DNA of 57,128 nucleotides. It comes from a virus (taxonomy: Duplodnaviria > Caudoviricetes). The stretch spans positions 1 through 57,128 of IMG/VR virus record IMGVR_UViG_3300032282_001405. The stretch is one strand, 5' to 3'. Positions 4,186 to 57,128 of this stretch are shown here, one piece after another. Position 1 is the stretch's first letter. The number at the start of each line of letters is the position of its first letter. The notes beneath the pieces were generated by a model. It saw only the letters and a list, made by a program, of their open reading frames with translations. It searched no databases and was not told the origin of the DNA. The translations under genes were made by a program, and so were the position numbers.

Positions 4186-7176
4186 TTATAGGTTATAGGT
4201 GTTGAGTCTAATGAAACCTGTAGGAGGCGTATAGACAAACGGTTGCTGACCGAAATTAAAGTTAAATGATGTTGAACCGCCTGTGTAAACAGTTCCACCA
4301 ATAAACCAAGTGTCTGATGCAATCCCTGTGTATGCCGCATTTGTCCCAGCCGCAGGGTCACCGCTTGCTTGCCATGTGCCGTTTTTACTCCACCAAATTT
4401 TTCCGTTATCAAGGTCAATAGCAATACCAACTATATCGCCTGAAGCAATTGTGTTTCCATAAGATGCACTTGTACCTTGGCTAATCTTGTCACCGTTTTG
4501 GATGTAATAGGCATAGCCTGTTCCAGTAGCAGAAGAAGCCATGAAGTCAGTAGTGTTTGCTAAATAACTTAATTTGCTCAAGTTTGCTATGCCAATAAAG
4601 TTAGCACTATTTGGTGACCCATTAACCACTACTTCGCAATACCATTTACCAGTTGTCATACCCATAGAACTAAAAAAGTTCTGATAAGCGCCAGCACTTG
4701 GTGCTACGGTAAGGTTTGCATTAGAAAAAGTTGGTTGGCTGTTTGATTTGTAAACAGGGTTCAACACAGCATAGTTAGCCGCTGTCGCACTTGTTAGTGT
4801 TGGTACATCGGTCATGCTGTCGTAGGTAGAACCAGCAGTTGTACTGATATTGTTAGGTGTCCAGTTGTTTCCATTTGGACTGAAGTCATACGCTAATGTT
4901 GTTGCACTTGTTGTATTGGTAAAAGGCAAATAGAAGCCGTTAGTACCATACGAACCACCATAGGTGATGGGTTGCCATACACCATAAGAATTGGTTGTTC
5001 CAAAACTGGACGGTGTCAGGGCCTGACCGTCAATGAAGTTGGCTTCAGCCATGTAACCATCTGTATAAGCGGGAAATGCATCGTTGTATCCAATAAAGTG
5101 TAAAACTCCATTTTTGTTCCAATATGGAAACGAGGTATAACTTGAGCGGACATCCGTACCCCATGAAGTAACTTCTACACCATTTACATAAACTCTAAAC
5201 CGCAAAGATGCAGTTGCATTCCCCATATCTGACACCGCAACAATGTGATACCAAGCGGCGGGGTCACGATATACTGCATTACTTATAAGTAAATAAGCGC
5301 CAAATACCATAACAGCAATTTGATTGCTTGAATTAAAAATTATTCCTTCTCCACCAGAATATGTCGGGCTGAAAATAGGTTGTACAGCACCGATTTTTCC
5401 TAATTTAATCCAGCCACTCCAAGTAAAAATATTTCCACTTGTAGGTGTTTTAAAAGTCCGATTCAAATAAGCTGAAGCACTAGAACGGAAACGCAAAGAG
5501 TTGTTTACATACTTGATTGGTGTCAGGTATCCGCTTGATGTGAATGTGTGAATGACATTACCACCAGTGATAGTCACAGTACCACCAGCCATTAGCTGTG
5601 TAGCACCTGCGTAAGAGATGATTACAACGCCAGAGCCACCTGCACCGCCAGTTCCATTACCACCAGAACCACCACCTCCACCAGCACCTAAGTTAGTAGT
5701 TCCAGCAGTACCAGTAGAGCCGTTACCAGTAGCACCAGCACCACCGCCACCAGTTCCACCAGCACCCGCTGGGTATGTAACTGTCGGGGTATAACCGCCA
5801 CCACCTCCACCTCCAGCATAAGTTACTGAAGAACCAGATATAGAAGATGCAGTTCCATTTCCTCCACCGCCAGAAGTATTAACACTTCCAGCGCCTCCAA
5901 CAGCACCCGCACCTCCACCGCCACCAGCACATACTGTTCCTTGAGCGCCACCATTATTTCCTTGTCCAGATGTTCCTGTTCCCGGAGAGCCGCCCCCACC
6001 TTGACCTGAGCCTCCGCCAGAACCACCATTGTTTGCAACAGTTTGACCTCCAGCACCACCACCTACTGCGGTAGTCGTGACCATGCTAAATAATGAATTA
6101 CTGCCGTTTACACCAGTTCCAGTACCGCCTGTGCCTCCAGCACCTCCAGCACCTACTGTTACAACATAGTTAGAGTTGGCATCAATGGTTACTCCAGAGC
6201 CTGATAAAAAGCCTCCAGCACCACCTCCACCACCCCAGTTTTGTCCACCACCTCCTCCGCCAGCAACAATCAAATAACTTGCTGTCAAAGAAGACAAAGG
6301 AGTCAATGTTCCTGATGTATTGAATGTATGAATAACATTAGAGCCACTTGTAGTGACTACTCCACCACCAAACTGTTGTGGGGCAGGGTATGAAATGATG
6401 ACTACGCCAGAACCGCCTTGACCGCCGGGTGCATTTGAAGAGCCATTGTTATCATTAACACCACCACCTCCGCCGCCGCCTAAATTAGCAGTTCCCGATT
6501 CGCCCGTTAAATTTCCTGAAGCGCCTCCTTGACCACCGCCGCCAGTACCACCAGCGGAACGAGTAGTAGATGCGCCACTTCCATAATTACCGCCCCCGCC
6601 CCCGCCAGCATAGGTAACGCTTGAGCCAGTTATAGATGACGCTGTTCCATTTCCACCCGGGCCAACGCTATTAGAACCAGCCGTACCAGCCGCACCAGCG
6701 CCACCGCCTCCACCACCATAATAATTTGATGCGCCCCCAGATGAACCTCCACCAGCATTTCCTTGACCAGATGTAGCAGAGCCACCTGACGTAGCAAATC
6801 GTCCTGCGCCACCGCCACCAGAGCCACCTGCTAAACCATTGCGTGAATCACCTGCCCCGCCGCCACCACCGCCTGTAGAGGTAATTGCATTAAATATTGA
6901 ATTACTTCCATTGCCACCATCGCCAGCACCAGAAGTACCAGCGCCGCCCGTTATAGGGCCAGCAGTACCACCAGCGCCAACAGTTACTGTGTATGAAAGA
7001 GTTGGGTTTAAAGTTGCTGTGCCTGATAACAACCCACCTGCCCCGCCTCCACCTCCAAAACGTGAACCACCACCACCACCGCCAGCAACCACAAGGTAAC
7101 TAGCAGTAACCGATTGCAGTCCTGTCCACCCAAAGGCGGCTAGTGCGGCGGCTCCAATCTTGGATAAGCGAGGCAT
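4186..7176 (-). CDS. Tail fibre/adhesin: two tandem glycine-rich domains + LamG/concanavalin-like + SPRY-like domain
   Basis: Duplicated unit YLxVAGGGGGG...GSGVVIISY...NVIHTF; SLRF..S.SAYL.RT, TWSGWIK, WYHIV (LamG); GKWYCEV, GDIVGIAIDLDNGKIWW, NFGQ (SPRY). Confidence 0.8.
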   Translation of the reverse strand: MPRLSKIGAAALAAFGWTGLQSVTASYLVVAGGGGGGSRFGGGGGAGGLLSGTATLNPTLSYTVTVGAGGTAGPITGGAGTSGAGDGGNGSNSIFNAITSTGGGGGGAGDSRNGLAGGSGGGGAGRFATSGGSATSGQGNAGGGSSGGASNYYGGGGGGAGAAGTAGSNSVGPGGNGTASSITGSSVTYAGGGGGGNYGSGASTTRSAGGTGGGGQGGASGNLTGESGTANLGGGGGGGVNDNNGSSNAPGGQGGSGVVIISYPAPQQFGGGVVTTSGSNVIHTFNTSGTLTPLSSLTASYLIVAGGGGGGQNWGGGGGAGGFLSGSGVTIDANSNYVVTVGAGGAGGTGGTGTGVNGSNSLFSMVTTTAVGGGAGGQTVANNGGSGGGSGQGGGGSPGTGTSGQGNNGGAQGTVCAGGGGGAGAVGGAGSVNTSGGGGNGTASSISGSSVTYAGGGGGGGYTPTVTYPAGAGGTGGGGAGATGNGSTGTAGTTNLGAGGGGGSGGNGTGGAGGSGVVIISYAGATQLMAGGTVTITGGNVIHTFTSSGYLTPIKYVNNSLRFRSSASAYLNRTFKTPTSGNIFTWSGWIKLGKIGAVQPIFSPTYSGGEGIIFNSSNQIAVMVFGAYLLISNAVYRDPAAWYHIVAVSDMGNATASLRFRVYVNGVEVTSWGTDVRSSYTSFPYWNKNGVLHFIGYNDAFPAYTDGYMAEANFIDGQALTPSSFGTTNSYGVWQPITYGGSYGTNGFYLPFTNTTSATTLAYDFSPNGNNWTPNNISTTAGSTYDSMTDVPTLTSATAANYAVLNPVYKSNSQPTFSNANLTVAPSAGAYQNFFSSMGMTTGKWYCEVVVNGSPNSANFIGIANLSKLSYLANTTDFMASSATGTGYAYYIQNGDKISQGTSASYGNTIASGDIVGIAIDLDNGKIWWSKNGTWQASGDPAAGTNAAYTGIASDTWFIGGTVYTGGSTSFNFNFGQQPFVYTPPTGFIRLNTYNL

Positions 7177-12107: not shown

Positions 12108-12503
12108 TTACCATCCAGAGCAGTTCCATCGCTTCAAAGAGGCTTTAGCCCTTGGTGCATCGCCCTTAGCGTGCTCCACAACACCGCTCATACGTGCACA
12201 AAAGGAATCCTTGCGTGCGCCCCCTTGAGGCTGTGGTGCTTTGAGGTGTGAACCTGTTTCTCGATTGTACTTTTCTCTACCTTTTTTTGTGAGTCCTGCG
12301 CCTTGTTTTGTCGATAGTTTTTCACCACGACCAACGGCTAGACTCACACCGCCCTCTTTCATTTTGGCGGTTTTTGCTGACTCTTTGAAGGCATCAGCAC
12401 TAGGCGCGCCTTTGCTACCAACTCTGCGCATTTTTTCACCAGAGCCGTTAGCAATTCTTTGCTGTTTTGCATGAATGTTTGCATATAGACCTTGTTTAGC
12501 CAT
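12108..12503 (-). CDS. Small basic protein (DUF6321-like C-terminal domain)
   Basis: GLYANIHAK N-terminus; GLTKKGREKYN...SFCARMSG...SLKRWNC; MKEGG between the two parts. Confidence 0.6.
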   Translation of the reverse strand: MAKQGLYANIHAKQQRIANGSGEKMRRVGSKGAPSADAFKESAKTAKMKEGGVSLAVGRGEKLSTKQGAGLTKKGREKYNRETGSHLKAPQPQGGARKDSFCARMSGVVEHAKGDAPRAKASLKRWNCSGW

Positions 12504-12506
12504 AAA

Positions 12507-12941
12507 TCACCAGCAAGAGTTAGTTTTCTTAACCTTGCCACCCTTAGCTTTTTTCTGATGCATCTTTTCAAAGCCTTCACGAACTTTGCTCAAAAAATCC
12601 ATGCCTTGCGCTTTGTTCATTGGCTTTTGTTTTGCCATGCGCGCCTGCTCTTCACGCACTCTGCGATCTTGAGGAGTATCCATCGCCGAGCCTTCCATAG
12701 GAGGTGGCGACTTCATACGTGACGAAGGACGCTTTTTCAAAGAAGCGTAGTAATCGACATCGCTATCGTATGAGTGTGGGCTGTAAGACTCAGGACGAAC
12801 ATCTCCGCCACCAGCTTTTTTAGCCGCACGCTTGGTGCTGTAAGCAATCGCCACGGCTTGCTTTTGGGGCTTGCCTGCGGCCATTTCAGCCTTAATGTTG
12901 GATTTAAAAGCTTTGTCGGATTTTGATTTGATCAATGGCAT
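12507..12941 (-). CDS. Small basic protein with xAxGG motifs
   Basis: MPLIKSKS...NIKAEM..GKPQKQAVAIAYS; KAGGG and KAKGG. Confidence 0.65.
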   Translation of the reverse strand: MPLIKSKSDKAFKSNIKAEMAAGKPQKQAVAIAYSTKRAAKKAGGGDVRPESYSPHSYDSDVDYYASLKKRPSSRMKSPPPMEGSAMDTPQDRRVREEQARMAKQKPMNKAQGMDFLSKVREGFEKMHQKKAKGGKVKKTNSCW

Positions 12942-13407: not shown

Positions 13408-14703
13408 TTACGCTCTTCCGCCGCGTTTGCGGGGCGCCACCGTCACTGATTTCTCAGTTTTTGTAACGCTACCTGCGGGTGCTGGCTTGCTAGTGAAGTA
13501 GTCTTTGATCTTTCCGTAACCTTCTTTGATCATGCTCAAAGGGTTCAGCGCGTCTTCAAGCTCACGGCTTGCTTTGTCTGTAACCACTTTGGGATCACCA
13601 GCGGGGGTAACGGAAGCTCCTTCAGCATACTTCTTAGCCTTGCCACCTTTGGCGTAGCCTCTGTTTACTTCGTGCTTGGCCGTCATGTGAGCATCTTCTA
13701 AATCGTCGGTGTGTGAATCACCTTCAGTTAAATGCTTACCTTCAGGGGTATAGAACTTGGTTCTGTACTCTTCCCAATCACGATCTTTGTAAACTTTGGC
13801 TACGTGTCCTTTTGGGCCAGTGTGGGTCTTAACAAGACGGAGATTTGGTTTCTCCTCTTTTTTTTTAACCTCACCGCCCTTAGCAAAGGTGCCAGACTGC
13901 AAGCTGTTTGCCACTGGACGTGACACAGGCTTGCGTGGCATAGCGACGGGACGACCTGTATTAACAGTACCCCCCGTCGCGTAGGCTTTTTTTGCTGAAC
14001 CGCCCTTCTTGTAGCCGCCGCCGTTAGCTTCTTTAACACCACCAGTAGTCATGTTAGAGACGCCACCCTTGGCTGTGTTAGCAGGACGATTTTCCCAACC
14101 AACTTTGCCGCCTTTTGCGTAGCCGCCACCGTTGGCTTCTTTAATACCTTTGGTACCGTGAGCTTTATCAGTCTTGTCGCCGTCCACCACTTTGGTGTTC
14201 AGAAACTTGCCTGCATTGCCCTTGATAGTTCCGCCGTTGGCATAACCGCCACCGTTCTTTTCCTTGATGCCTTTGGTGCCATGAGCCTTATCGGTCTTGT
14301 CACCATCAACCACCTTGGTATTGAGGTACTTACCAGCATTACCTTTGACGGTAGTTTTGGTTTCAGCGCTGTCGATCTTGCCGCCATCGGCGAATTTCTT
14401 ACCAGCCATAGCCTTCTTGATCATTGCGCGATCTTGAGCGGCATCTTCATGCATGTCAGCCTTGCCACCTTTTTTGGCCATCATCAGAGGGTTCATCGCT
14501 TTACGACGAGCCATCATTGAAGGCTTTTTAGGTGCCATGCCCATAGGGGCGCCAGCAGTAGCAGGCATTTGGGCAGGCATAGTAGATTGCATAGGCATGT
14601 AACCGCCGTCCATCTTTGAAGCAACTTTGCCGCCTTTTTTAAGCTTCAGGATTACTGAAGGCTCTGTGGTCATCATTTTGACCATTGGTTTGAATTGACC
14701 CAT
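13408..14703 (-). CDS. Lys/Gly-rich protein with about 12 xA/KxGG motifs (putative internal head protein)
   Basis: LKKGG, AKKGG, FADGG, YANGG, YAKGG, TAKGG, YKKGG, YATGG, FAKGG, YAKGG, YAEGA, RKRGG; 41-aa internal duplication. Confidence 0.75.
   Translation of the reverse strand: MGQFKPMVKMMTTEPSVILKLKKGGKVASKMDGGYMPMQSTMPAQMPATAGAPMGMAPKKPSMMARRKAMNPLMMAKKGGKADMHEDAAQDRAMIKKAMAGKKFADGGKIDSAETKTTVKGNAGKYLNTKVVDGDKTDKAHGTKGIKEKNGGGYANGGTIKGNAGKFLNTKVVDGDKTDKAHGTKGIKEANGGGYAKGGKVGWENRPANTAKGGVSNMTTGGVKEANGGGYKKGGSAKKAYATGGTVNTGRPVAMPRKPVSRPVANSLQSGTFAKGGEVKKKEEKPNLRLVKTHTGPKGHVAKVYKDRDWEEYRTKFYTPEGKHLTEGDSHTDDLEDAHMTAKHEVNRGYAKGGKAKKYAEGASVTPAGDPKVVTDKASRELEDALNPLSMIKEGYGKIKDYFTSKPAPAGSVTKTEKSVTVAPRKRGGRA
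14109..14346 (-). repeat. Intragenic tandem duplication, 123-nt (41-aa) period
   Basis: KGNAGK(Y/F)LNTKVVDGDKTDKAHGTKGIKE(K/A)NGGGYA(N/K)GG occurs twice with synonymous divergence. Confidence 0.9.
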
Positions 14704-17328: not shown

Positions 17329-17874
17329 TTACCCAGCGAAAACTGGGACTTTGCTTGGTTGCTGATCAAAAGAGCCAAGACCTTCACCTTCAACATTAAC
17401 TAGCGACTTACCATTGCTATCTCTTTGCCCTTGGAGACTTTCTAGCTGAACGCGAACTTTGTCGCTTTCCTCACGAGGTTTGTCATGATGGTGATACAAC
17501 ATGAGATCCTGATAAATATCCATTGGCAATTTAAACAGCAACATTTCGTTACAAGCTATATGCCCAATTTGCTCTCCAGATTTAACCTTGTAATCTTCAT
17601 AGCCGGGTAACTCTTCAGATTTAACTGGCACGTACCCATTGCGAATCCGTTTATCGATTGAATCGTAGCTATTGGTTGTCGAAAGCCAGCAAAGGTGCCA
17701 CCCATCCATGTTGGGCAGTTTTGGCAGTGCTGATTGCGTCCATTCCTCGTCCCACATCTTGCGACGTTCTTGCGTAGAAATGAACTTAGTCTCTGGGGCT
17801 GAGCGGCTTGCCTCCACACTTGCGCGTTCCTGACGTCCGCCAGCCTTCAAAGATTTTTTTAAACGTGATTCCAT
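17329..17874 (-). CDS. Conserved head-module hypothetical protein
   Basis: GGGAG RBS before ATG 17874; GWHLCWLS...GYVPVKSEE...MLLFKLP. Confidence 0.65.
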   Translation of the reverse strand: MESRLKKSLKAGGRQERASVEASRSAPETKFISTQERRKMWDEEWTQSALPKLPNMDGWHLCWLSTTNSYDSIDKRIRNGYVPVKSEELPGYEDYKVKSGEQIGHIACNEMLLFKLPMDIYQDLMLYHHHDKPREESDKVRVQLESLQGQRDSNGKSLVNVEGEGLGSFDQQPSKVPVFAG

Positions 17875-17891
17875 ATTATTACTCCCATGTA

Positions 17892-18884: not shown

Positions 18885-19340
18885 TTAAACATAAGCTTTG
18901 AAAGACAGTGGATCGTCAGTGATTTTTGCAATCACTTCGTGGTCATTTATCGTCATGAACAACACTGGATCCTCTTTGGAGTCTGCATTGGGGTCATTAC
19001 GCTCCCAACGATCTCCACCCCAGCGTGGTACGCGCACGAAATCACCTACTTGTGCCCAAGTTCCCTCTGGCCAAGACTCCATGGTGTCGCGGTTTTTGTA
19101 TGCCAAAGGCCCAAGTGCCACGACCTTACCGATCATGTTGTTCCACTTTTCGTTTTCTTTGGTTTCATCGACGATGATGATCATTCCAGCCTTCTTTTTG
19201 ATGCGACGTAACTGAACAATTACGCGCCCTCCAAGAGGTGTCTGACCAGCATTTACTTTGGGGAATGCCCACTCCAACTCTTGAGGATCGGACGCTTGCG
19301 CGCTTCCCTCGATCGTTGGGATCTTCTCTTTTTCACTCAT
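18885..19340 (-). CDS. groES: GroES-like co-chaperonin
   Basis: PLGGRVIVQ...GMIIIVDETKE...GKVVALGP...VGDFV...INDHEVIAKI; AGGAG RBS before ATG 19340. Confidence 0.85.
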   Translation of the reverse strand: MSEKEKIPTIEGSAQASDPQELEWAFPKVNAGQTPLGGRVIVQLRRIKKKAGMIIIVDETKENEKWNNMIGKVVALGPLAYKNRDTMESWPEGTWAQVGDFVRVPRWGGDRWERNDPNADSKEDPVLFMTINDHEVIAKITDDPLSFKAYV

Positions 19341-19418
19341 ACTAACTCCTAAAATGCACCATAGTTTCAGGTGCGTCATTTATGCGTTTTTCAACGCGGC
19401 CTCGTCCTTTAGGGGGAC

Positions 19419-19747: not shown

Positions 19748-22271
19748 TTGGGGCTCCTTGAGGTTGTGACGTTTCCGTCGGTTGTTGCATAGCGGCTTGT
19801 TGCAAGGCCATGTCTTGCTCCAGTGCGTGCTTCTGCATATCGTTAGCTTGCTCCGTGCCATGCATCTGCATAGCGTTTTGCTGGGCTGTACTTTCCTGAA
19901 TCACTTGACCAGTGATCTTAGCGTTTTCTATTGCAATTTTGGCCGCGATCTCCTTATCGTGCTCAGCAGATTGAGCAGATATTTTGAGTTGTGCCTCTTG
20001 TGCACGCTGTTGATCTGCCTGTGTCTTACGCTGTGTTTCAGCCATGCTAGTGTCGTGGACGACTTGTGCATCAGGTGGCAGGTTCTGCTTGGCAGACTGT
20101 GCGCGCTGTTGTGCTTGCTGTATCAATTGCTGGAAGGCAGGTATAAACTGCTGGAAGACTTCTTTAACGTCTAATGTGATGTGGGCGCCAACCGTTGTGT
20201 ACAACTGGTCAATCATTGCCGTCATCTTTGGATCGTCGTAGTTGTCTACTGGCTTGCCTTTGTTAGCTTGAGCCACATAACCATTCGAGCGGTTCAAGTA
20301 CCACAGAGTCATGTGTTGCTTCAAATGCTCGATCAAATGGTTCAGATACTGTGGATCCGCAAATGGCGACTGACCCAAGAATGGGTTAAGTCCAAATTGC
20401 AAGTGATCCTGTATGTGGGCGATGTGATCTTGTTGCATGTACGCGTAGGCTGGCTGGCCAATCAGCATAGCCGCGTTCTCATCGGCAGAAGTCCGCTGTT
20501 CAGGCGCAGGCACGTCTTTCATCAGTTCATTGATGTTTGGCACCTTCATCTGCTTGAGGGATCTGGCCAACACGTTGTTCATGTTGAACTGGTCAGGATG
20601 CTTCTCCGCCAAAGCTATAACAGCCTGCATCTGAGCCATACGTTGAGTCTCAGAGAAGATGTGTGGGTCAGAGACTGGCACCACGTCTGTGTTCTTTGAG
20701 AAGTCTTCGCGGTTGATATCCAGATCAGCCACCACATCAGACTTGCGCATTTCATCAAAGTGCCAACGGTTGAGCCGGCACAAGATTTTCAATACGCGCG
20801 CTTGGCTTTCGTGTAATCTGGCATGGATAGCACTGAATACCGCGGCGCCTTGCTCAATCAAAGCCTGTGTGGTGCCTACAGGCGCGTTAGCGTTGACGTC
20901 AGCGATCTTTTCTTCACTGGTGGTCACTACCCCCTTAGCCGCGTTGTCAAGCCAGCCTAGAAGCTGGAATAGAACTGCGCTAGGTGGGTTGAATGGCATA
21001 GGCATAGCGATCTGACGGATGTCAGTGACGCCGGGTGCGCCTTCGATCTCCACAATCTGCGTAACGTCCACCGACTGGCTCTGCCCTGACATCTTCGCTC
21101 CCTTGAGCTTGAGCATAGTCGCGGCATTGTTAATGTGAGCACTGTCCAAAAGAGCACGCAAAGAACCAGTAAGGGCGGCAGACAAGCCACCAATAAGATG
21201 AGGTAATCCAATCGCATATGCACCCCTCCAAGGAATGAACTTGAACTCTACGATCCAATCCAGCTTGGTCATCGTCTCGTCTGTCTCTTCCCAGTTCCTG
21301 TACAGGCCAATAACTTCGTTATCAAGCTCATCAATCATCATGATGTAAGGAGCCATCTCACCCTTGCTGTACTTGTCTTCGTCCAACTCCAAGAAGGTGT
21401 AGACGTGATAGACCTTGCGCAGGCCGTCTTCGTTGTCTTCCCACTTCTTGCCTTCGATCTTGTCGTTGGCCTTTTGTGGTCTTGTAAGCTCAGGCGACAT
21501 GGTGGCTCTGACCATATCGATGTCACGATACATGCCACTAGCTACACGTCTATTGAATTCCCAGTGCGTAATCTCATGCACTTCCGCCGCACGTTCTGCG
21601 GTGTAAAAGTTACTGGCCGCAAAGGGCAGGATTACACGGTCGATAGGCAAGAACTCCACACAGGGACGCTTCTTCTGCTCATCAAACCATAACTTAAAGT
21701 ATTGGGAGCCACCTAGTGGTAGCTGTGTGAGCAATTGTTCTTGCTCATCTCTGAACTCTTCAATCTGCTCGGTGATCTGCCAGTTCAAGTAGTCGCGCTT
21801 ACGCTCTGCACGCTCAGACTTGATCTCATCCATCTTGCCTAGGATTTTGGTTCTGACGGGACCATCTGGGGGGAACATTTCTTTGATCGCACGCGCCGCA
21901 AAGTCCACACATCCTTCAGCCATAGAAGGGTGTACCACTTTGCTAGCGCCCATGAACGTGGCACCGCCGGGCGCGTCATTACCCATACCAGTGCGCCGAA
22001 TGCCCTCTTCATACTGCTTGTCGCGCTGTTCTCTGGCATCTTTGTCCTTCTTCAGTAAGTCAACGTAGCGACTAGCCAATGTCATCAGCTTAAAGTCGTC
22101 GTAATCCTCCGCCATGTTGGCGTAGAAGTCTGGATTAACCTCTGGGCCATCCTCCTCCATAGTGACTATGGCGCTACCGTCAGGCTGTTCTTCAGTTTCA
22201 ATCTCAGGCAGATCTACCTCGGCACTGCCGTCTTCGTTCTCTGTGATTTGTGGGTCTAATTCATCCATCAT
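19734..22271 (-). CDS. Portal protein (P22-like)
   Basis: 845 aa; GASKVVHP, LPLGGSQYFK, FIPWRGAYAIGL, APVGTTQALIEQG, VVPVSDP; Gln-rich barrel-like C-terminus. Confidence 0.85.
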   Translation of the reverse strand: MMDELDPQITENEDGSAEVDLPEIETEEQPDGSAIVTMEEDGPEVNPDFYANMAEDYDDFKLMTLASRYVDLLKKDKDAREQRDKQYEEGIRRTGMGNDAPGGATFMGASKVVHPSMAEGCVDFAARAIKEMFPPDGPVRTKILGKMDEIKSERAERKRDYLNWQITEQIEEFRDEQEQLLTQLPLGGSQYFKLWFDEQKKRPCVEFLPIDRVILPFAASNFYTAERAAEVHEITHWEFNRRVASGMYRDIDMVRATMSPELTRPQKANDKIEGKKWEDNEDGLRKVYHVYTFLELDEDKYSKGEMAPYIMMIDELDNEVIGLYRNWEETDETMTKLDWIVEFKFIPWRGAYAIGLPHLIGGLSAALTGSLRALLDSAHINNAATMLKLKGAKMSGQSQSVDVTQIVEIEGAPGVTDIRQIAMPMPFNPPSAVLFQLLGWLDNAAKGVVTTSEEKIADVNANAPVGTTQALIEQGAAVFSAIHARLHESQARVLKILCRLNRWHFDEMRKSDVVADLDINREDFSKNTDVVPVSDPHIFSETQRMAQMQAVIALAEKHPDQFNMNNVLARSLKQMKVPNINELMKDVPAPEQRTSADENAAMLIGQPAYAYMQQDHIAHIQDHLQFGLNPFLGQSPFADPQYLNHLIEHLKQHMTLWYLNRSNGYVAQANKGKPVDNYDDPKMTAMIDQLYTTVGAHITLDVKEVFQQFIPAFQQLIQQAQQRAQSAKQNLPPDAQVVHDTSMAETQRKTQADQQRAQEAQLKISAQSAEHDKEIAAKIAIENAKITGQVIQESTAQQNAMQMHGTEQANDMQKHALEQDMALQQAAMQQPTETSQPQGAPNGNV

Positions 22272-25200
22272 TTAGCCTTTTTCATAGTCAGTTCAAGTAG
22301 CATAGTGTCTAACTTCTTGTTAATTGAAACTGGCTTTTTGTGTTTGGAATGATACGTCATTTGATTTGCATTTTGTTCTTCTTGTTCACCATCACGCATA
22401 GCTAAGTGACGTTGTGCTATTACGTTTTGTTCAGGGAATGCGTGGAAGTTGTCATCTCCGTAGCCGGGGTGACGACCAAGGTTGATACTACCGCCATTAG
22501 CTAACTTCCAAGTCTTTGGAATGTTTATTGGTTTAGGCGCAACATATTCTTTTCCTTTTGCTTTCTCCTGATCTTCTGGACGATCAACTTCGTACTCGCC
22601 TTTGTTTTTAAGCGCGTGATCAATATGGCTGGCATTTACGTTGTGAGTAAATGTAGTTTGGTGACTAGCCAAATCAGTTGATTCGGTTGGCGTGGTCATC
22701 AAAATATGGCCAGCAACTTTGCCGTTCTTTGTCTTAAAACGATTCTTTGGCAAAAAGTCTTCGTCTTTAAAACGTGAATCCGTTGGAATCATGTGAGCAG
22801 TGCCATCATCATTGTGGCCAACTTGAACCAAACGGGGATGCAAGATGTGCTGGCGTTGGTAGTCGTAACGCAAACCCTTGTGGGTGCGGTGGCCATAGTG
22901 CGACTTGTCTTCGGTAGTAGGCTTGCCGTTGCCACCAAAGTGGCCTTCAGGACCTTCTGCTTTCTCTTGTTCTGTTAATTCGCTATCAGGGCGGCCAACT
23001 GACCAATATTTGGCGTGCTTGATAGCACCTTCCATTTTTTTGCTCATTGGTGAACCACGTTTTACATCAGTAACAAAGTACGAGCCTTTGGGTGGCGTTT
23101 TGTTACCCTGCTCATTGACAAAGTCACCCTTGTTATCAGCCGCCATGATGGTGTTACGTACCCTAGCTTTATCGCGTCCAATGTTTTCAGCAATCTCTTG
23201 CCCATGCTTAACTTTGGGGCCAATGTTTGAATGCGTAACGTAGTAACCGTTTTCTGGATCATGCAACTCATTGGTCTTGCCATACTGGTTGGAAATGATG
23301 TCAGGACGACCTTCTGCTTTACGTTGACTGTTGAGGTGACGAATTACGTGACGTGATGTTGTATCTGTCTCATCAACCACGTTTGGACGGAACAACATAC
23401 GTTTGTTTTGAGTGTCAGCCTTTTCTGCCGCGCTTCTCATAGATCCAGTGTGAGCAATGATCCAGTCCTTTGTCATGGCTGGGTCGTGTTTGGCAATTGC
23501 GTGGCCTGCGCGACGGCTAACAGCCGCGGCGTATTGAGATTCAGCGTTTGGAGCAAAACATGATCCACGCTTAGTGTCCACAATGCCTTGCGCATCAACG
23601 CCACCGCCGCACCCAGTGGTTTGCCCGGGGCAGGTGTTAATCACCTCGTAGTCCATGTCTTTGCCATGGCCCTTTGGAAATAGCGCACGACCTGCAATCC
23701 CTTTAGACGCATAGCCAACGTGTGAGCGGCCTTGGGCGTCATACTCATGATTAACAGTATCCAGCTTTTCGGACTCATCTAAAGTATCACGGTTGTCCTT
23801 AATAAACTTGGCTTCGCGCAAGCGATTCAACGCCTCTTGTTCAGCCGCGCGTTGATCATCAATTGGCTTTGCAAAATGCTCAGACAAAGCTTGTTTGTGG
23901 ATGTCGCTAATACTTCTCATGTCCAATGGATCACGATGCTCAGCACCATAGACTTTTGCCCGTGCCTTCATCATGTTCTTCAAACCCTCTGCGGAGGCAT
24001 TAGGGTTTCCTTCGATCAAGTGCCTAGGCACCACAATACCTTTGACGCCGCCACGACCTTCTGCCTTAATCAACACGCGCTTAGGCAAACTTTTCTTTTT
24101 AGCTATTTCTTTTTTCATGCTTTCAACGTCGCCACCCTTAGCTAACTGCTGTAGGTTGTCTATGTTGAATGTGCTCTCGCCGTCGTCCTGATACCAGCTT
24201 GGCTGTGCTTCAGGCATGTTGTCGCTACCACCGACCTTATAGGTCATGGGGATAGATCCACCATCAGACATGCGCGCTGGCGCCTGTGGTGGGCTCATAG
24301 CGTTCAGTGCTTGGCCTTGTGGCGTCATCTGCAAGATGTTGCTAGGAGGCTGTTGTGCTGGGCTAGAGGCGCCAGCACTGAGAGGCGAGGGCATACCACC
24401 AGCTTGTGGCGGCTGGCCTTGTGGCGCTCCTTGTGGGGGCACTAGGTTTGCAGGCATCAACTGATGACCTTGCTGTTGGCTCATATCGATACCACCGATA
24501 GGCAAAGGCTGGTTGCCCATGCTCACGCCGCCCACAGGCAACTGACCGCCTGATGGTGGGACATAAGCTTTGACGTTCATGTTAGGCGCTTCATTAGCAC
24601 CGATGGTAGATAAGTCAGACAGGCTAATAGGCTTCTTACCTAGTAACTCTGCACGCATTTGATTCATTGATGGTTGCACTTGGCCTCCTACAGCTTTATG
24701 GATTATCCCGCCTTCTTTGTGCAAAGGTAGGCCGTTGGTCAAAACGTCTTTGCGCATCTCTTCATTTATAGGGAAGTAATGCAGTTGAGCTTGTGGTTGA
24801 TCTGGGTTTGTTTCCCCAGTCATTGGGTTGAAGTCTGATACACCCTTTGGAATTGAGTGTGCATGTAACTCAGTCTTCACGCCGTATTTCTTGCCGATAC
24901 TGTTCAGGATGTTTGGCACCTTCTTGTCATAGAAGCCCTTCATGCCTTCACCGCCAACTTCCATGTCAAGACCACGAAGGGAACGAACAGGGTCACCAAG
25001 CGTGTCTCGTGGCTTTTGCGCCATCAATTTTTCTGCAAGTTCTTTTCCAACAAACGATGGCAAGTCTTGCGGCGTTACGCCAGTTTGTTTAATGACTTCG
25101 TTGCCCTCTCCGTCATACGCAACAAGGTTTGATCCAGAGTAGTGCAGATCATCAATGTACTTGGCTAAGCTGTAACGGTCTGCCTGCTCTTGACCCGGTG

Positions 25201-26617
25201 TCACCACGATGCCGTGATAGCCCTTCTCCGCGGCATGATGGATCAGGCGCTTCAACGCCATCTCTTCCCAGTTCTTTTTGAATGGGGCGTTGGGAACACC
25301 ACGGTTTTCTGGCTCACTGGGTGAGGATTCGCTAAGTATGTTTAGCTGTCGCAGTATGTTGGTTTCTCTTTGCCTGAGATCATTGGCTTCTTTTAGCTGG
25401 TCATATTGCTTTTGCATAGCCCTTAGATCTTCTACATCTTGAGGACTCTCAAAGTTAGCTATATGGGTTTTGGCCAGTAGCTTTAATCCAAGTTGATGTA
25501 ATTGATCTGGTGTAGCCGTGCCAATATTTGGCGAGTTACGCATTTTTTCTTTGAGGGTTTTGTATTCCTCGTTGAGAGTATTGCTCTCGTTCTTAACGTA
25601 CTCGTCATGTGCTTTTTGTTTTTTTTGTCTTTCTTCCTTTAATTCTTCAGGAGTCTTTTGATAACCCTTCTCACGCCCTTGTTGGTGCCAGTCTGACTGC
25701 AACTCTTCTAGGTGCAATAGCTTTAATGGAGGCTTTGCAATTTGAGCTTGTTTTTTAACCAAAGAATCCTGTATGTTGGCTGGCAATGTTTTTATGTATG
25801 CGTCCAACTCTTCTGGCGTAGCAAAATCTGGAGATGGAAATCCAGATTTTTTATTAAATGCCACATGACGTATTTCAGAAGGCTGTTCTACTATGCGATC
25901 CTTCAGGCGCATGCTGGCTAGGATGTCTTTCTCACCACCAAAGTGTGCACCTACGCCTTGGAATTGTTCTCTGCTTTGAGTTTTATTTAATGAATCTTTC
26001 CACAATTTTTTGTCTGCATTAGTTGCAAAATCAGAATTAGCGCCTGCTGGGCCGTATTTAGCCTCCAATATGTTGCGTAAATCGTTATGTTCTCCATCTA
26101 TTGCGGGGGCTTTGATCAGCATCTCGCGGTAGTTATTACCGCCGGGCAACGTGTAATCTTTATGATATGGAGCGCCGCCGCCACCTCTATTTTCCAAGCT
26201 ATCCATGGCATCTTGCATATAGTCGCGGTAACTATCTTCAGCCATTTCACGCGCTGTATCTTCTGCGGCGTTTGGGCCTAAACCTTCTGCACGCAACTCC
26301 TGCATCGCAGATTCATATGCCATCTCTTTGGCAACATTCTTAATTACATTTTTATCAAGTGTTTCGCCCAATACCTTCTCACGTATTGCTGGCGCAGGCT
26401 TGGCCGCTAACGCCGCCATAAACTGCTCATGCGTCATCTTAGGGGCACCCATGATCTCACCCAAGCCACGATCTTCAATCTCTGATTGCTTGATGCCACC
26501 TAAGCCTTTTAGCTCTTGCATGAACTCAGAACCAGTACCAACCTTGCGCTTCAGTAACCCCGCGGCTTTGTCTACAGCAGAGTAAAAGGGTTTGCCTTGT
26601 CCAACAAGTTCTTTCAT
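22268..26617 (-). CDS. Large multidomain (polyvalent-type) protein: EELQSDWHQ domain + Pro/Gln linker + Gp88-like Cys domain
   Basis: LPGGNNYRE, LEELQSDWHQQGR, APFKKNW, GMKGFYD; NTCPGQTTGC...SCFA...FRPN; domains flanked by xxxGG motifs. Confidence 0.7.
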   Translation of the reverse strand: MKELVGQGKPFYSAVDKAAGLLKRKVGTGSEFMQELKGLGGIKQSEIEDRGLGEIMGAPKMTHEQFMAALAAKPAPAIREKVLGETLDKNVIKNVAKEMAYESAMQELRAEGLGPNAAEDTAREMAEDSYRDYMQDAMDSLENRGGGGAPYHKDYTLPGGNNYREMLIKAPAIDGEHNDLRNILEAKYGPAGANSDFATNADKKLWKDSLNKTQSREQFQGVGAHFGGEKDILASMRLKDRIVEQPSEIRHVAFNKKSGFPSPDFATPEELDAYIKTLPANIQDSLVKKQAQIAKPPLKLLHLEELQSDWHQQGREKGYQKTPEELKEERQKKQKAHDEYVKNESNTLNEEYKTLKEKMRNSPNIGTATPDQLHQLGLKLLAKTHIANFESPQDVEDLRAMQKQYDQLKEANDLRQRETNILRQLNILSESSPSEPENRGVPNAPFKKNWEEMALKRLIHHAAEKGYHGIVVTPGQEQADRYSLAKYIDDLHYSGSNLVAYDGEGNEVIKQTGVTPQDLPSFVGKELAEKLMAQKPRDTLGDPVRSLRGLDMEVGGEGMKGFYDKKVPNILNSIGKKYGVKTELHAHSIPKGVSDFNPMTGETNPDQPQAQLHYFPINEEMRKDVLTNGLPLHKEGGIIHKAVGGQVQPSMNQMRAELLGKKPISLSDLSTIGANEAPNMNVKAYVPPSGGQLPVGGVSMGNQPLPIGGIDMSQQQGHQLMPANLVPPQGAPQGQPPQAGGMPSPLSAGASSPAQQPPSNILQMTPQGQALNAMSPPQAPARMSDGGSIPMTYKVGGSDNMPEAQPSWYQDDGESTFNIDNLQQLAKGGDVESMKKEIAKKKSLPKRVLIKAEGRGGVKGIVVPRHLIEGNPNASAEGLKNMMKARAKVYGAEHRDPLDMRSISDIHKQALSEHFAKPIDDQRAAEQEALNRLREAKFIKDNRDTLDESEKLDTVNHEYDAQGRSHVGYASKGIAGRALFPKGHGKDMDYEVINTCPGQTTGCGGGVDAQGIVDTKRGSCFAPNAESQYAAAVSRRAGHAIAKHDPAMTKDWIIAHTGSMRSAAEKADTQNKRMLFRPNVVDETDTTSRHVIRHLNSQRKAEGRPDIISNQYGKTNELHDPENGYYVTHSNIGPKVKHGQEIAENIGRDKARVRNTIMAADNKGDFVNEQGNKTPPKGSYFVTDVKRGSPMSKKMEGAIKHAKYWSVGRPDSELTEQEKAEGPEGHFGGNGKPTTEDKSHYGHRTHKGLRYDYQRQHILHPRLVQVGHNDDGTAHMIPTDSRFKDEDFLPKNRFKTKNGKVAGHILMTTPTESTDLASHQTTFTHNVNASHIDHALKNKGEYEVDRPEDQEKAKGKEYVAPKPINIPKTWKLANGGSINLGRHPGYGDDNFHAFPEQNVIAQRHLAMRDGEQEEQNANQMTYHSKHKKPVSINKKLDTMLLELTMKKAK

Positions 26618-56882: not shown

Positions 56883-57128
56883 CTATGACAGGAAAATCGC
56901 ACGCTCATCTTTGCGGCGGTTCTCTAACCCTTTGAGGATCTTTCCACCAGCCTTGCAATACTTCAACAACTCTTCTGCCGCGCCTTCCATATCCCCGCGC
57001 AGAACCTTTTGACGGAGGGTTGAGCGCTGTAGTGTTCCCAGACCAACATTGAAACTAAAAGATATGAGAGCATCGTACTGACCCTGAGTGAGGGGAACAG
57101 GACAGAACTGAACCACACCTCGCTCAAA
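56883..57128 (-). CDS. Endolysin, GH24 phage lysozyme, C-terminal part
   Basis: QGQYDALISFSFNVGLG...STL...KGLENRRKDE is the typical GH24 C-terminal signature. Confidence 0.92.
   Translation of the reverse strand, partial: FERGVVQFCPVPLTQGQYDALISFSFNVGLGTLQRSTLRQKVLRGDMEGAAEELLKYCKAGGKILKGLENRRKDERAIFLS
57006..57128. repeat. Direct terminal repeat (circular assembly overlap), right copy
   Basis: Identical to 1-123. Confidence 0.97.

Follow-up and report, generated by a model that had tools for sequence, protein, structure and literature searches.

The proteins called polyvalent are believed to be the earliest weapons that a phage delivers. In the part of their description covered here (Iyer 2017, PMC5512222), they are polypeptides of phages and conjugative elements in which two to fifteen distinct effector-type domains are combined, with ART-PolyVal, LPD, PBECR and PcfJ as signature domains, and they are argued to need processing, a role given to a zincin-like MPTase domain that is common among them without being universal. 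The present work concerns a protein of this kind in a 57,128-nucleotide (nt) stretch of tailed-phage DNA (IMG/VR record IMGVR_UViG_3300032282_001405; this whole stretch is called the window below) and the short Gly-Gly motif, here called the joint, which parts its domains. Judged from their sequences, the 966-amino acid (aa) protein and the 1449-aa open reading frame (ORF) coupled to it form an effector array of the polyvalent type described in Iyer 2017 (PMC5512222). The class is already known, and the new element is the fixed Gly-Gly joint.

Short peptides are read in several other virion systems. Adenain of adenovirus and pS273R of African swine fever virus (ASFV) are maturation proteases specific for Gly-Gly, adenain having Met, Ile or Leu at P4; the prohead-protease motifs of T4 and phiKZ-like phages are similarly common to some head proteins and absent from others; and the T4 capsid targeting sequence, the cargo-loading peptides of encapsulins and the encapsulation peptides of microcompartments are usually single, terminal cargo signals. 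Prohead-protease motifs have also been described in head and ejection proteins of phage SPN3US (PMC10052503 and PMC7411985, each as far as covered here). Like the polyvalent proteins in the covered part of Iyer 2017, the present locus places unrelated effector domains in one polypeptide beside virion genes, has relatives with signature Pfam domains and is extremely mosaic; unlike them, it gives no peptidase or MPTase match, and its cassettes are parted by one fixed short motif. The covered text of that paper, supplements aside, describes no fixed joint and uses the words “linker” and “glycine” 0 times each, and a literature search, which took in papers without their supplementary files, returned none on a Gly-Gly joint and, among the matches listed, none on phages with the motif strings.

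The 966-aa ORF carries eight copies of the motif, each at the place given in an earlier note on this DNA: RANGG, KAKGG, MAEGG, KAKGG, EAKGG, FASGG, MAKGG and YKSGG, with the first base of the GG at 29352, 28899, 28821, 28362, 27978, 27387, 27327 and 26664 respectively. The protein contains 12 GG pairs compared with 5.6 +/- 2.2 expected (20 of 2,000 shuffles reach 12), and 9 occurrences of [AK]xGG, overlaps included, compared with 1.0 +/- 0.98 expected (none of 20,000 shuffles reaches 9). The three remaining GG pairs, at residues 650, 668 and 834, are internal to domains and have no A or K two residues before the GG; the pair at 834 is not always retained among relatives. The proposal made in the same note that the motifs mark domain boundaries is borne out by the fact that the ends of BLAST segments against 119 relatives pile up at residues 196-235, 369-390, 502-517, 704-737 and 946-966, which are the motif positions, and by the domain matches: the Pfam ASCH match (403-474) and the PHROG 30118 match (520-708) are each enclosed by two motifs, while the PHROG 2579 match (194-382) ends at a motif and has a start which straddles the joints at 206 and 232. 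An AlphaFold2 model of the whole protein, built from a 30-row alignment, was poor (mean pLDDT 42.5), and the dips in its confidence at motifs 55, 206, 232, 385 and 513 lend weak support.

The joint proves to be longer than first noted, comprising seven residues, [K/M/Y/L/F]-A-x-G-G-x-[V/I]. In a logo of 163 non-redundant A-x-G-G sites, position -3 is K, M, Y, L or F (1.4 bits), -2 is Ala, -1 is K, E or D, and the GG is followed at +3 by Val or Ile (63%, 1.5 bits). When a stricter left side is used, which gives 218 non-redundant sites, the second residue past the GG is Val in 119, or 10 times background, and the residue right after the GG is enriched 4.7-fold in Ser and depleted in Pro (7 of 218). 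Both acidic (MAEGGSDED) and basic (KAKGGKVKK) versions are present, tandem motifs are spaced by 8 residues in 80 instances and by 7 in 24, a unit of 17-20 aa of the form AxGG - x-V-x-P-T-x-D/E-x-M-R/K-x-x-L - AxGG recurs in the family, and four proteins have a motif close to their start, 24-55 aa from the N-terminus. Relatives whose flanks differ still retain the A/K-x-GG core at each junction, joint motif 1 included, so that conservation of the motif in homologues, on which the earlier note had made its claim depend, holds. The codons vary from site to site, and selection therefore acts on the peptide; an RNA-level signal and a plain DNA repeat, both of which were considered, are ruled out by this variation.

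The motif extends beyond the array to other proteins of the head gene block. Its density, expressed as occurrences of [AK]xGGx[VIA] per 100 aa in 80 related loci, is 0.45 in the 966-aa family and 0.36 in the 1449-aa family, and it is also found in small basic proteins encoded farther along the block (Table 1); it falls to 0.10 in the adaptor, 0.09 in the scaffold and 0.004 in the portal, and it is 0.000 in the large terminase (TerL), Cpn10, p211, p199 and the major capsid protein (MCP). One short motif is thus common to several head-block proteins and absent from others, as prohead-protease motifs are. The richest is p431, which holds 8 strict copies, 11 of a pattern with a looser left flank and 14 of plain [AK]xGG. 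Its first 20 residues, directly ahead of the first motif, are 93% conserved compared with 25-80% for the remainder, and its motif positions are better conserved than its other positions (0.72 vs 0.49). The protein is very basic and rich in Gly, Lys and Met, with a Met-rich N-terminal part and internal repeats of ~41 aa (GNAGKFLNTKVVDGDKTDKAHGTKGIKE-NGGGYAxGG), and it may be an internal head protein.

Table 1. Features of the polyvalent array and of the head gene block, with positions in the window
Feature	Positions	Strand	Remarks
966-aa polyvalent protein, first ORF of the array	26614..29514	-	GTG start; a leader, an N-terminal domain and four cassettes, with the motif as connector
Joint motif 1, PRANG-G, residues 52-56	29347..29361	-	preceded by a predicted helical N-terminal leader (low-confidence model)
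Joint motif 2, KAKGG, residues 203-207	28894..28908	-	from motif scan and BLAST segment ends
Mini-cassette GG-VIDMDRMRLELMNKAK...MAEGG, residues 208-233	28816..28893	-	short conserved helix-like element between motifs; ends with joint motif 3
PHROG 2579 (“ParB C-terminal domain”) cassette, residues 234-386	28357..28815	-	ends with joint motif 4, KAKGG
ASCH cassette, residues 387-514	27973..28356	-	PF04266, E 2e-05, at 403-474; ends with joint motif 5, EAKGG
“YRPGWH” cassette, residues 515-711	27382..27972	-	PHROG 30118 (unknown function), E 9.7e-62; ends with joint motif 6, FASGG
Spacer VVAPDEWKAEEHVNY and joint motif 7 (MAKGG), residues 712-731	27322..27381	-	recurrent 20-aa unit
C-terminal cassette with IEGHEGRHRSR, residues 732-952	26659..27321	-	no Pfam match; ends with joint motif 8, YKSGG
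C-terminal tail ATHAHHLDIEERPL	26617..26658	-	coding DNA directly upstream of the start codon of the next gene
1449-aa ORF	22268..26617	-	module A (8-637), Met/Pro/Gln-rich disordered stretch, module B (~860-1365), tail
Module B	22523..24040	-	GP88-like domain
Cpn10/GroES-like gene	18885..19379	-	Pfam Cpn10, E 8.6e-05
p211 gene (183 aa)	17329..17880	-	no family assignment
p431, 431-aa basic repeat protein	13408..14703	-	motif density 2.24; motif in 50/50 relatives
p144, 144-aa basic protein	12507..12941	-	motif at residues 44 and 134; density 0.77; in ~95% of 19 relatives
131-aa DUF6321 protein	12108..12503	-	MKEGGV at residue 51; weak member, motif in only ~11% of 36 relatives
996-aa protein	4186..7176	-	two Gly_rich_2 domains, C-terminal SPRY domain

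The identities assigned to the cassettes fared unevenly. The ASCH label of the earlier note is confirmed by the Pfam match, but an “ART-like” label for residues 234-386 is not confirmed, since that region has no Pfam ART match at E <= 0.1 and matches PHROG 2579 instead, and a “ParB/Srx-like” label for residues 732-946 is backed by no Pfam match and goes back to a resemblance of motifs, by which the C-terminal cassette (732-952) may be ParB-like. This cassette has a counterpart of 61% identity in relative P0137, whose ParB_N match probably comes from a second ParB-like cassette, distinct from this one and bearing the classic GGHR motif. The tail ATHAHHLDIEERPL occurs in the family only at the ends of proteins (22 terminal and 0 true internal occurrences), and this conserved tail may be a docking peptide; its coding DNA overlaps the region just 5' of the next start codon.

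The joints are also the places at which the proteins of the family have been rearranged. The homologous loci show swaps, deletions and permutations exactly at the motifs, as the note's reading of them had anticipated. Relative P0003 consists of residues 1-223 (96% identity) joined to 382-742 (95%), a clean loss of one cassette, and the PHROG 2579 cassette is cleanly missing from P0010 and P0013 as well as from P0003; P0028 and P0054 have the same cassettes in another order, the ASCH cassette standing in permuted positions in P0054, P0023 and P0018; some relatives lack the C-terminal cassette, the deletion running precisely from motif to motif (alignment rows VNYNRSGGATHAHH); and in P0004 the identity jumps across a joint, from 98% on one side to 63% on the other. 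When 120 proteins were compared all against all, a motif lay within 5 aa of 30% of the 8,480 internal homology breakpoints, compared with 6.5% for randomised sites (maximum 7.7% over 200 trials). A breakpoint was present within 10 aa at 594 of the 664 internal motif sites, but at only 336 of the 919 GG sites of other kinds. When 225 family proteins are cut at the motif, their segments combine into 159 architectures, a count that is approximate because the single-linkage clustering was coarse, with family 0 mixing YRPGWH and C-terminal cassettes.

Such a concentration of breakpoints would also be expected if the joint were a passive hinge, that is, a helix cap and flexible linker which lets the cassettes fold independently and unfold domain by domain for ejection, and which persists mainly since exchanges that land there stay in frame, short DNA repeats promoting the exchange. 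The DNA around some joints is in keeping with this: cassette 224-384 is bracketed by an 8-nt direct repeat, AAAGCCAA, at which a natural deletion variant joins exactly, and the sites at 206 and 385 have 11 nt in common, so that short microhomology at the joints probably aids in-frame cassette exchange. The domains can, moreover, do without the joint. The YRPGWH domain is also found in gp38 (1,204 aa) of the cultured marine Roseobacter phage CRP-212 (MZ892988.1, 5023-8634), encoded just after the portal, where it has no AxGG flanks, and distant proteins that contain module B of the 1449-aa ORF alone (33-48% identity, no cassettes) likewise lack flanking motifs; because of these cases the joint is regarded as a trait of the cassette-bearing lineage. 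A hinge, however, has no need for Ala at -2, a hydrophobic residue or Lys at -3, or Val at +3 at ten times background, and leaves this side-chain specificity unexplained; the codons differ among sites; and the motif also occurs in non-mosaic small basic proteins, with the motif positions of p431 being the better conserved ones. A hinge alone is for these reasons considered unlikely.

The assignment of the array to the polyvalent class follows from its domain content and its position. The 966-aa protein combines four cassettes with an N-terminal domain, and it is encoded among late and virion genes, with TerL on one side and the portal, beyond the 1449-aa ORF, on the other. Its relatives number 682 at E <= 0.001 among 8,000 candidates scored, and a typical one is 93-95% identical across only 25-48% of the query. 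ASCH is the sole Pfam match of the protein itself, beside its matches to PHROGs 30118 and 2579, and a Pfam scan of 33 diverse relatives that share cassettes with it found ART-PolyVal in 15, ASCH in 14, GP88 in 8, PcfJ in 5, GNAT in 3, GDSL lipase, LPD23 and DUF3990 in 2 each, and PBECR5, DnaJ_C and ParB_N in 1 each. The placement of the gene between terminase and portal, taken together with the signature domains of the relatives, fits a virion-delivered protein. Neither an MPTase nor any other peptidase family was matched in the 966-aa ORF, the 1449-aa ORF or the 33 relatives.

The specificity of the joint points to a partner that reads it, and the reading we favour, tentatively and from sequence, is that the partner is a protease and the joint a processing site cut after the Gly-Gly. 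Read from terminase to portal, the array starts with an N-terminal leader, continues with exchangeable effector cassettes and module A, and passes through a disordered region to the strongly conserved, GP88-like module B beside the portal gene. Its product would be packaged as a virion-delivered polyvalent effector protein, and the joint, which selection maintains as a peptide, would be recognised specifically and cleaved after Gly-Gly, with release of separate effectors. The same cutting would remove leaders and break up the small basic head proteins, in the head or after injection. This reading is ranked first because the motif stands at every cassette edge and after N-terminal leaders and is limited to candidate internal proteins, and because polyvalent proteins are argued, in the covered part of PMC5512222, to need separation; a docking element is ranked as nearly as likely, followed by the hinge, with mimicry of a GroES loop as a long shot. 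Processing is further favoured by the placement of the motif near the N-terminus in four proteins, the conserved leader of p431, the enrichment of Ser and depletion of Pro at P1', and the structural order of module B, which ends just before a motif. Adenain and pS273R have their Gly-Gly sites at boundaries of virion precursor proteins, small basic ones among them, and here Gly-Gly stands at all cassette edges, the candidate boundaries of mature products; as in T4, phiKZ and SPN3US (the last two papers cited above, in part) a short motif is common to several head-block proteins and to leaders near the N-terminus.

Several points weigh against cleavage. The joint differs from the adenain consensus in having Ala at P4, a hydrophobic residue or Lys at P5 and Val at P2', and in occurring at tandem sites; motifs only 7-8 residues apart, Val at P2' in 119 of 218 sites and 8 strict copies in a protein of 431 aa would each be unusual for cleavage sites. 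No peptidase family in Pfam, PHROGs or NCBIfam was matched in the scanned ORFs, a set that leaves aside most ORFs below 90 aa and a few larger ones, and in particular no clan CE or other cysteine protease was matched there, in contrast to adenain and pS273R; some ORFs, such as the highly conserved p211, belong to no known family. No prohead protease gene was recognised between the portal and the MCP, and the locus encodes a separate scaffold-like gene and an MCP of 304 aa, a head type that often matures without a protease. The motifs of T4, phiKZ and SPN3US (for the last, again as far as covered) end in Glu and are cut by a known phage-encoded prohead protease, whereas no such gene is seen here and the head set looks scaffold-based. 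That module B might itself be the protease was considered and is unsupported, its fold having no match among solved structures and matching only “gene product 88” models. Among the phages of the collection that was searched, no cultured relative with virion proteomics was found.

Several of these features would also fit a joint that is bound and not cut. A beta-hairpin formed by [hydrophobic]-A-x-GG-x-V, often accompanied by an amphipathic helix D/E-x-M-K/R-x-E-L, could dock inside the procapsid at a repeated site on the capsid, scaffold or portal, so that any cassette between two joints would be loaded and p431 would act as an internal multivalent binder. Under this proposal the tandem spacing of 8 or 7 residues, the units of 17-20 residues with a motif, a helix and a second motif, and the 8 strict copies in p431, all 50 of whose relatives have the motif, are as expected; Ala at -2 and Val or Ile at +3, conserved on either side of the GG, would pair across a two-residue turn; and the restriction of the motif to candidate internal proteins, the lack of a matched protease family in the scanned ORFs and the fact that the models do not show the motif regions packed against the domains to which they belong are all in agreement. 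As with cargo-loading signals, a short peptide could load arbitrary domains into a shell of the HK97-type fold. Those of T4 and the encapsulins, however, are single and terminal, while the joint is internal and repeated at every junction, and its binding is a proposal. Moreover, one pocket would have to accept both MAEGGSDED and KAKGGKVKK, and in neither structure model is the motif confidently structured. Docking is accordingly held to be possible but somewhat doubtful.

A further possibility, that the joint mimics the mobile loop of GroES and binds the host chaperonin in order to fold the domains or to block GroEL, is suggested by the Cpn10-like gene which this phage carries between its portal and scaffold genes. 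The gene is kept in MW202545.1, an uncultured phage, with the annotation “chaperonin 10 kd subunit”, and the joints FASGGVVAPD and KEGGIIHK resemble GroES loop sequences; but the GroES loop requires three consecutive hydrophobic residues after the glycines, while in the joint conservation is confined to +3, with mostly Ser or polar residues at +2, and the idea is very improbable. In the Cpn10-like protein of the window, the mobile-loop region reads by eye as KKKAGMIIIV.

The functions considered above could also be combined in a universal head-cargo connector, in which the hairpin and its companion helix would serve at once as the loading tag that brings any cassette into an HK97-type capsid, as release point and as in-frame splice site, and the reader, a protease or a receptor, would belong to a novel family, for example the 183-aa p211; this is a speculative construction with a low probability. 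The p211 gene, which lies with the scaffold on one side and the capsid on the other and has no family assignment, is 78-100% conserved in the 80 loci and is found in at least 594 viral contigs. A homologue search gave 1,804 protein clusters, with identities of 78-95% and no Pfam domain among the 120 matches listed, and a comparison of its sequence with those of solved structures gave no match; p211 was considered as a hidden protease, and these results do not bear on catalytic residues. One source assigns a copy of p211 to a Betaproteobacteria bin, a hint at the host.

The lineage offers a defined handle on how polyvalent proteins are loaded, separated and diversified, with one peptide per junction and hundreds of natural swap variants, and it is very common in metagenomes, as the contigs with the neighbouring p211 gene and the 682 relatives of the protein indicate. 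Should the joint turn out to signal cleavage or loading, it would supply a rule by which mature effectors can be predicted from sequence and a route by which chosen proteins can be loaded into phage heads; if the universal connector exists, phage heads would have in it a natural plug-and-play code for their cargo; and if the joint is only a hinge, it would still be a natural example of standardised domain connectors that drive mosaic evolution.

The second ORF of the array carries motifs at residues 636, 644, 786, 796 and 828, in its disordered stretch, and at 1375, after module B. Elsewhere its parts are joined differently: other phages encode direct fusions of 966-aa-protein cassettes with module A or module B, and the same modules occur as one ORF of up to 2,074 aa. 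Module B, a highly conserved domain encoded beside the portal, is always C-terminal (67-99% identity in proteins of 811-2074 aa in total, among the 120 relatives listed), and only 85 representative clusters contain it among 1.84 billion proteins. Its AlphaFold2 model is confident (pLDDT 86.1, pTM 0.80), with order that stops at about residue 515, just ahead of the motif at model residue 526. Eleven residues, mostly polar, are invariant (D202, R228, E234, N247, Y263, S281, G284, T307, Y331, S340 and H377 in model numbering), three Cys are nearly so, and module B looks like an enzyme of unassigned activity. Its fold had no match among solved structures (best E 0.6) and, in a library of viral models, matched only uncharacterised “gene product 88” models. 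Profiles of modules A and B found nothing among the sequences of solved structures, nor did the 966-aa and 1449-aa sequences find anything significant there; in the ESM Atlas, module B had no usable match and module A matched only unnamed viral clusters scoring below 0.9. A complex was also predicted between residues 195-245 of the 966-aa protein and module B (1-520 of alignment A2); it scored 0.02 against a mark of 0.32, a result that counts neither way.

The window begins and ends with an exact 123-bp overlap (1-123 = 57006-57128), on account of which it is taken to be a complete, circularly closed phage genome of ~57,005 bp. The order of genes on the minus strand is TerS, TerL (Pfam Terminase_6N, E 3.7e-26), the 966-aa ORF, the 1449-aa ORF, the portal, the Cpn10-like gene, an acidic scaffold-like gene, a 211-(or 183-)aa gene, a 199-aa gene and the MCP, 3' of which, in gene order, come several small basic proteins and an SU10-type adaptor. 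The ORF coordinates give 4-nt stop/start overlaps between the 966-aa and 1449-aa genes (26614-26617), where ATGA was read in the sequence, and between the 1449-aa and portal genes (22268-22271), where the coordinates alone were used; these overlaps suggest that the array is translated in a coupled manner with the portal. The circular MW202545.1 (57,457 bp) has the same layout, with a single 890-aa protein separating terminase from portal. Glycine-rich sequence of another kind is found in the 996-aa protein, whose two Gly_rich_2 domains contain VAGGGGGG and YAGGGGGG runs; these GG runs are unrelated to the joint motif, and the protein, which ends in a SPRY domain, is probably a fibre or receptor-binding protein.

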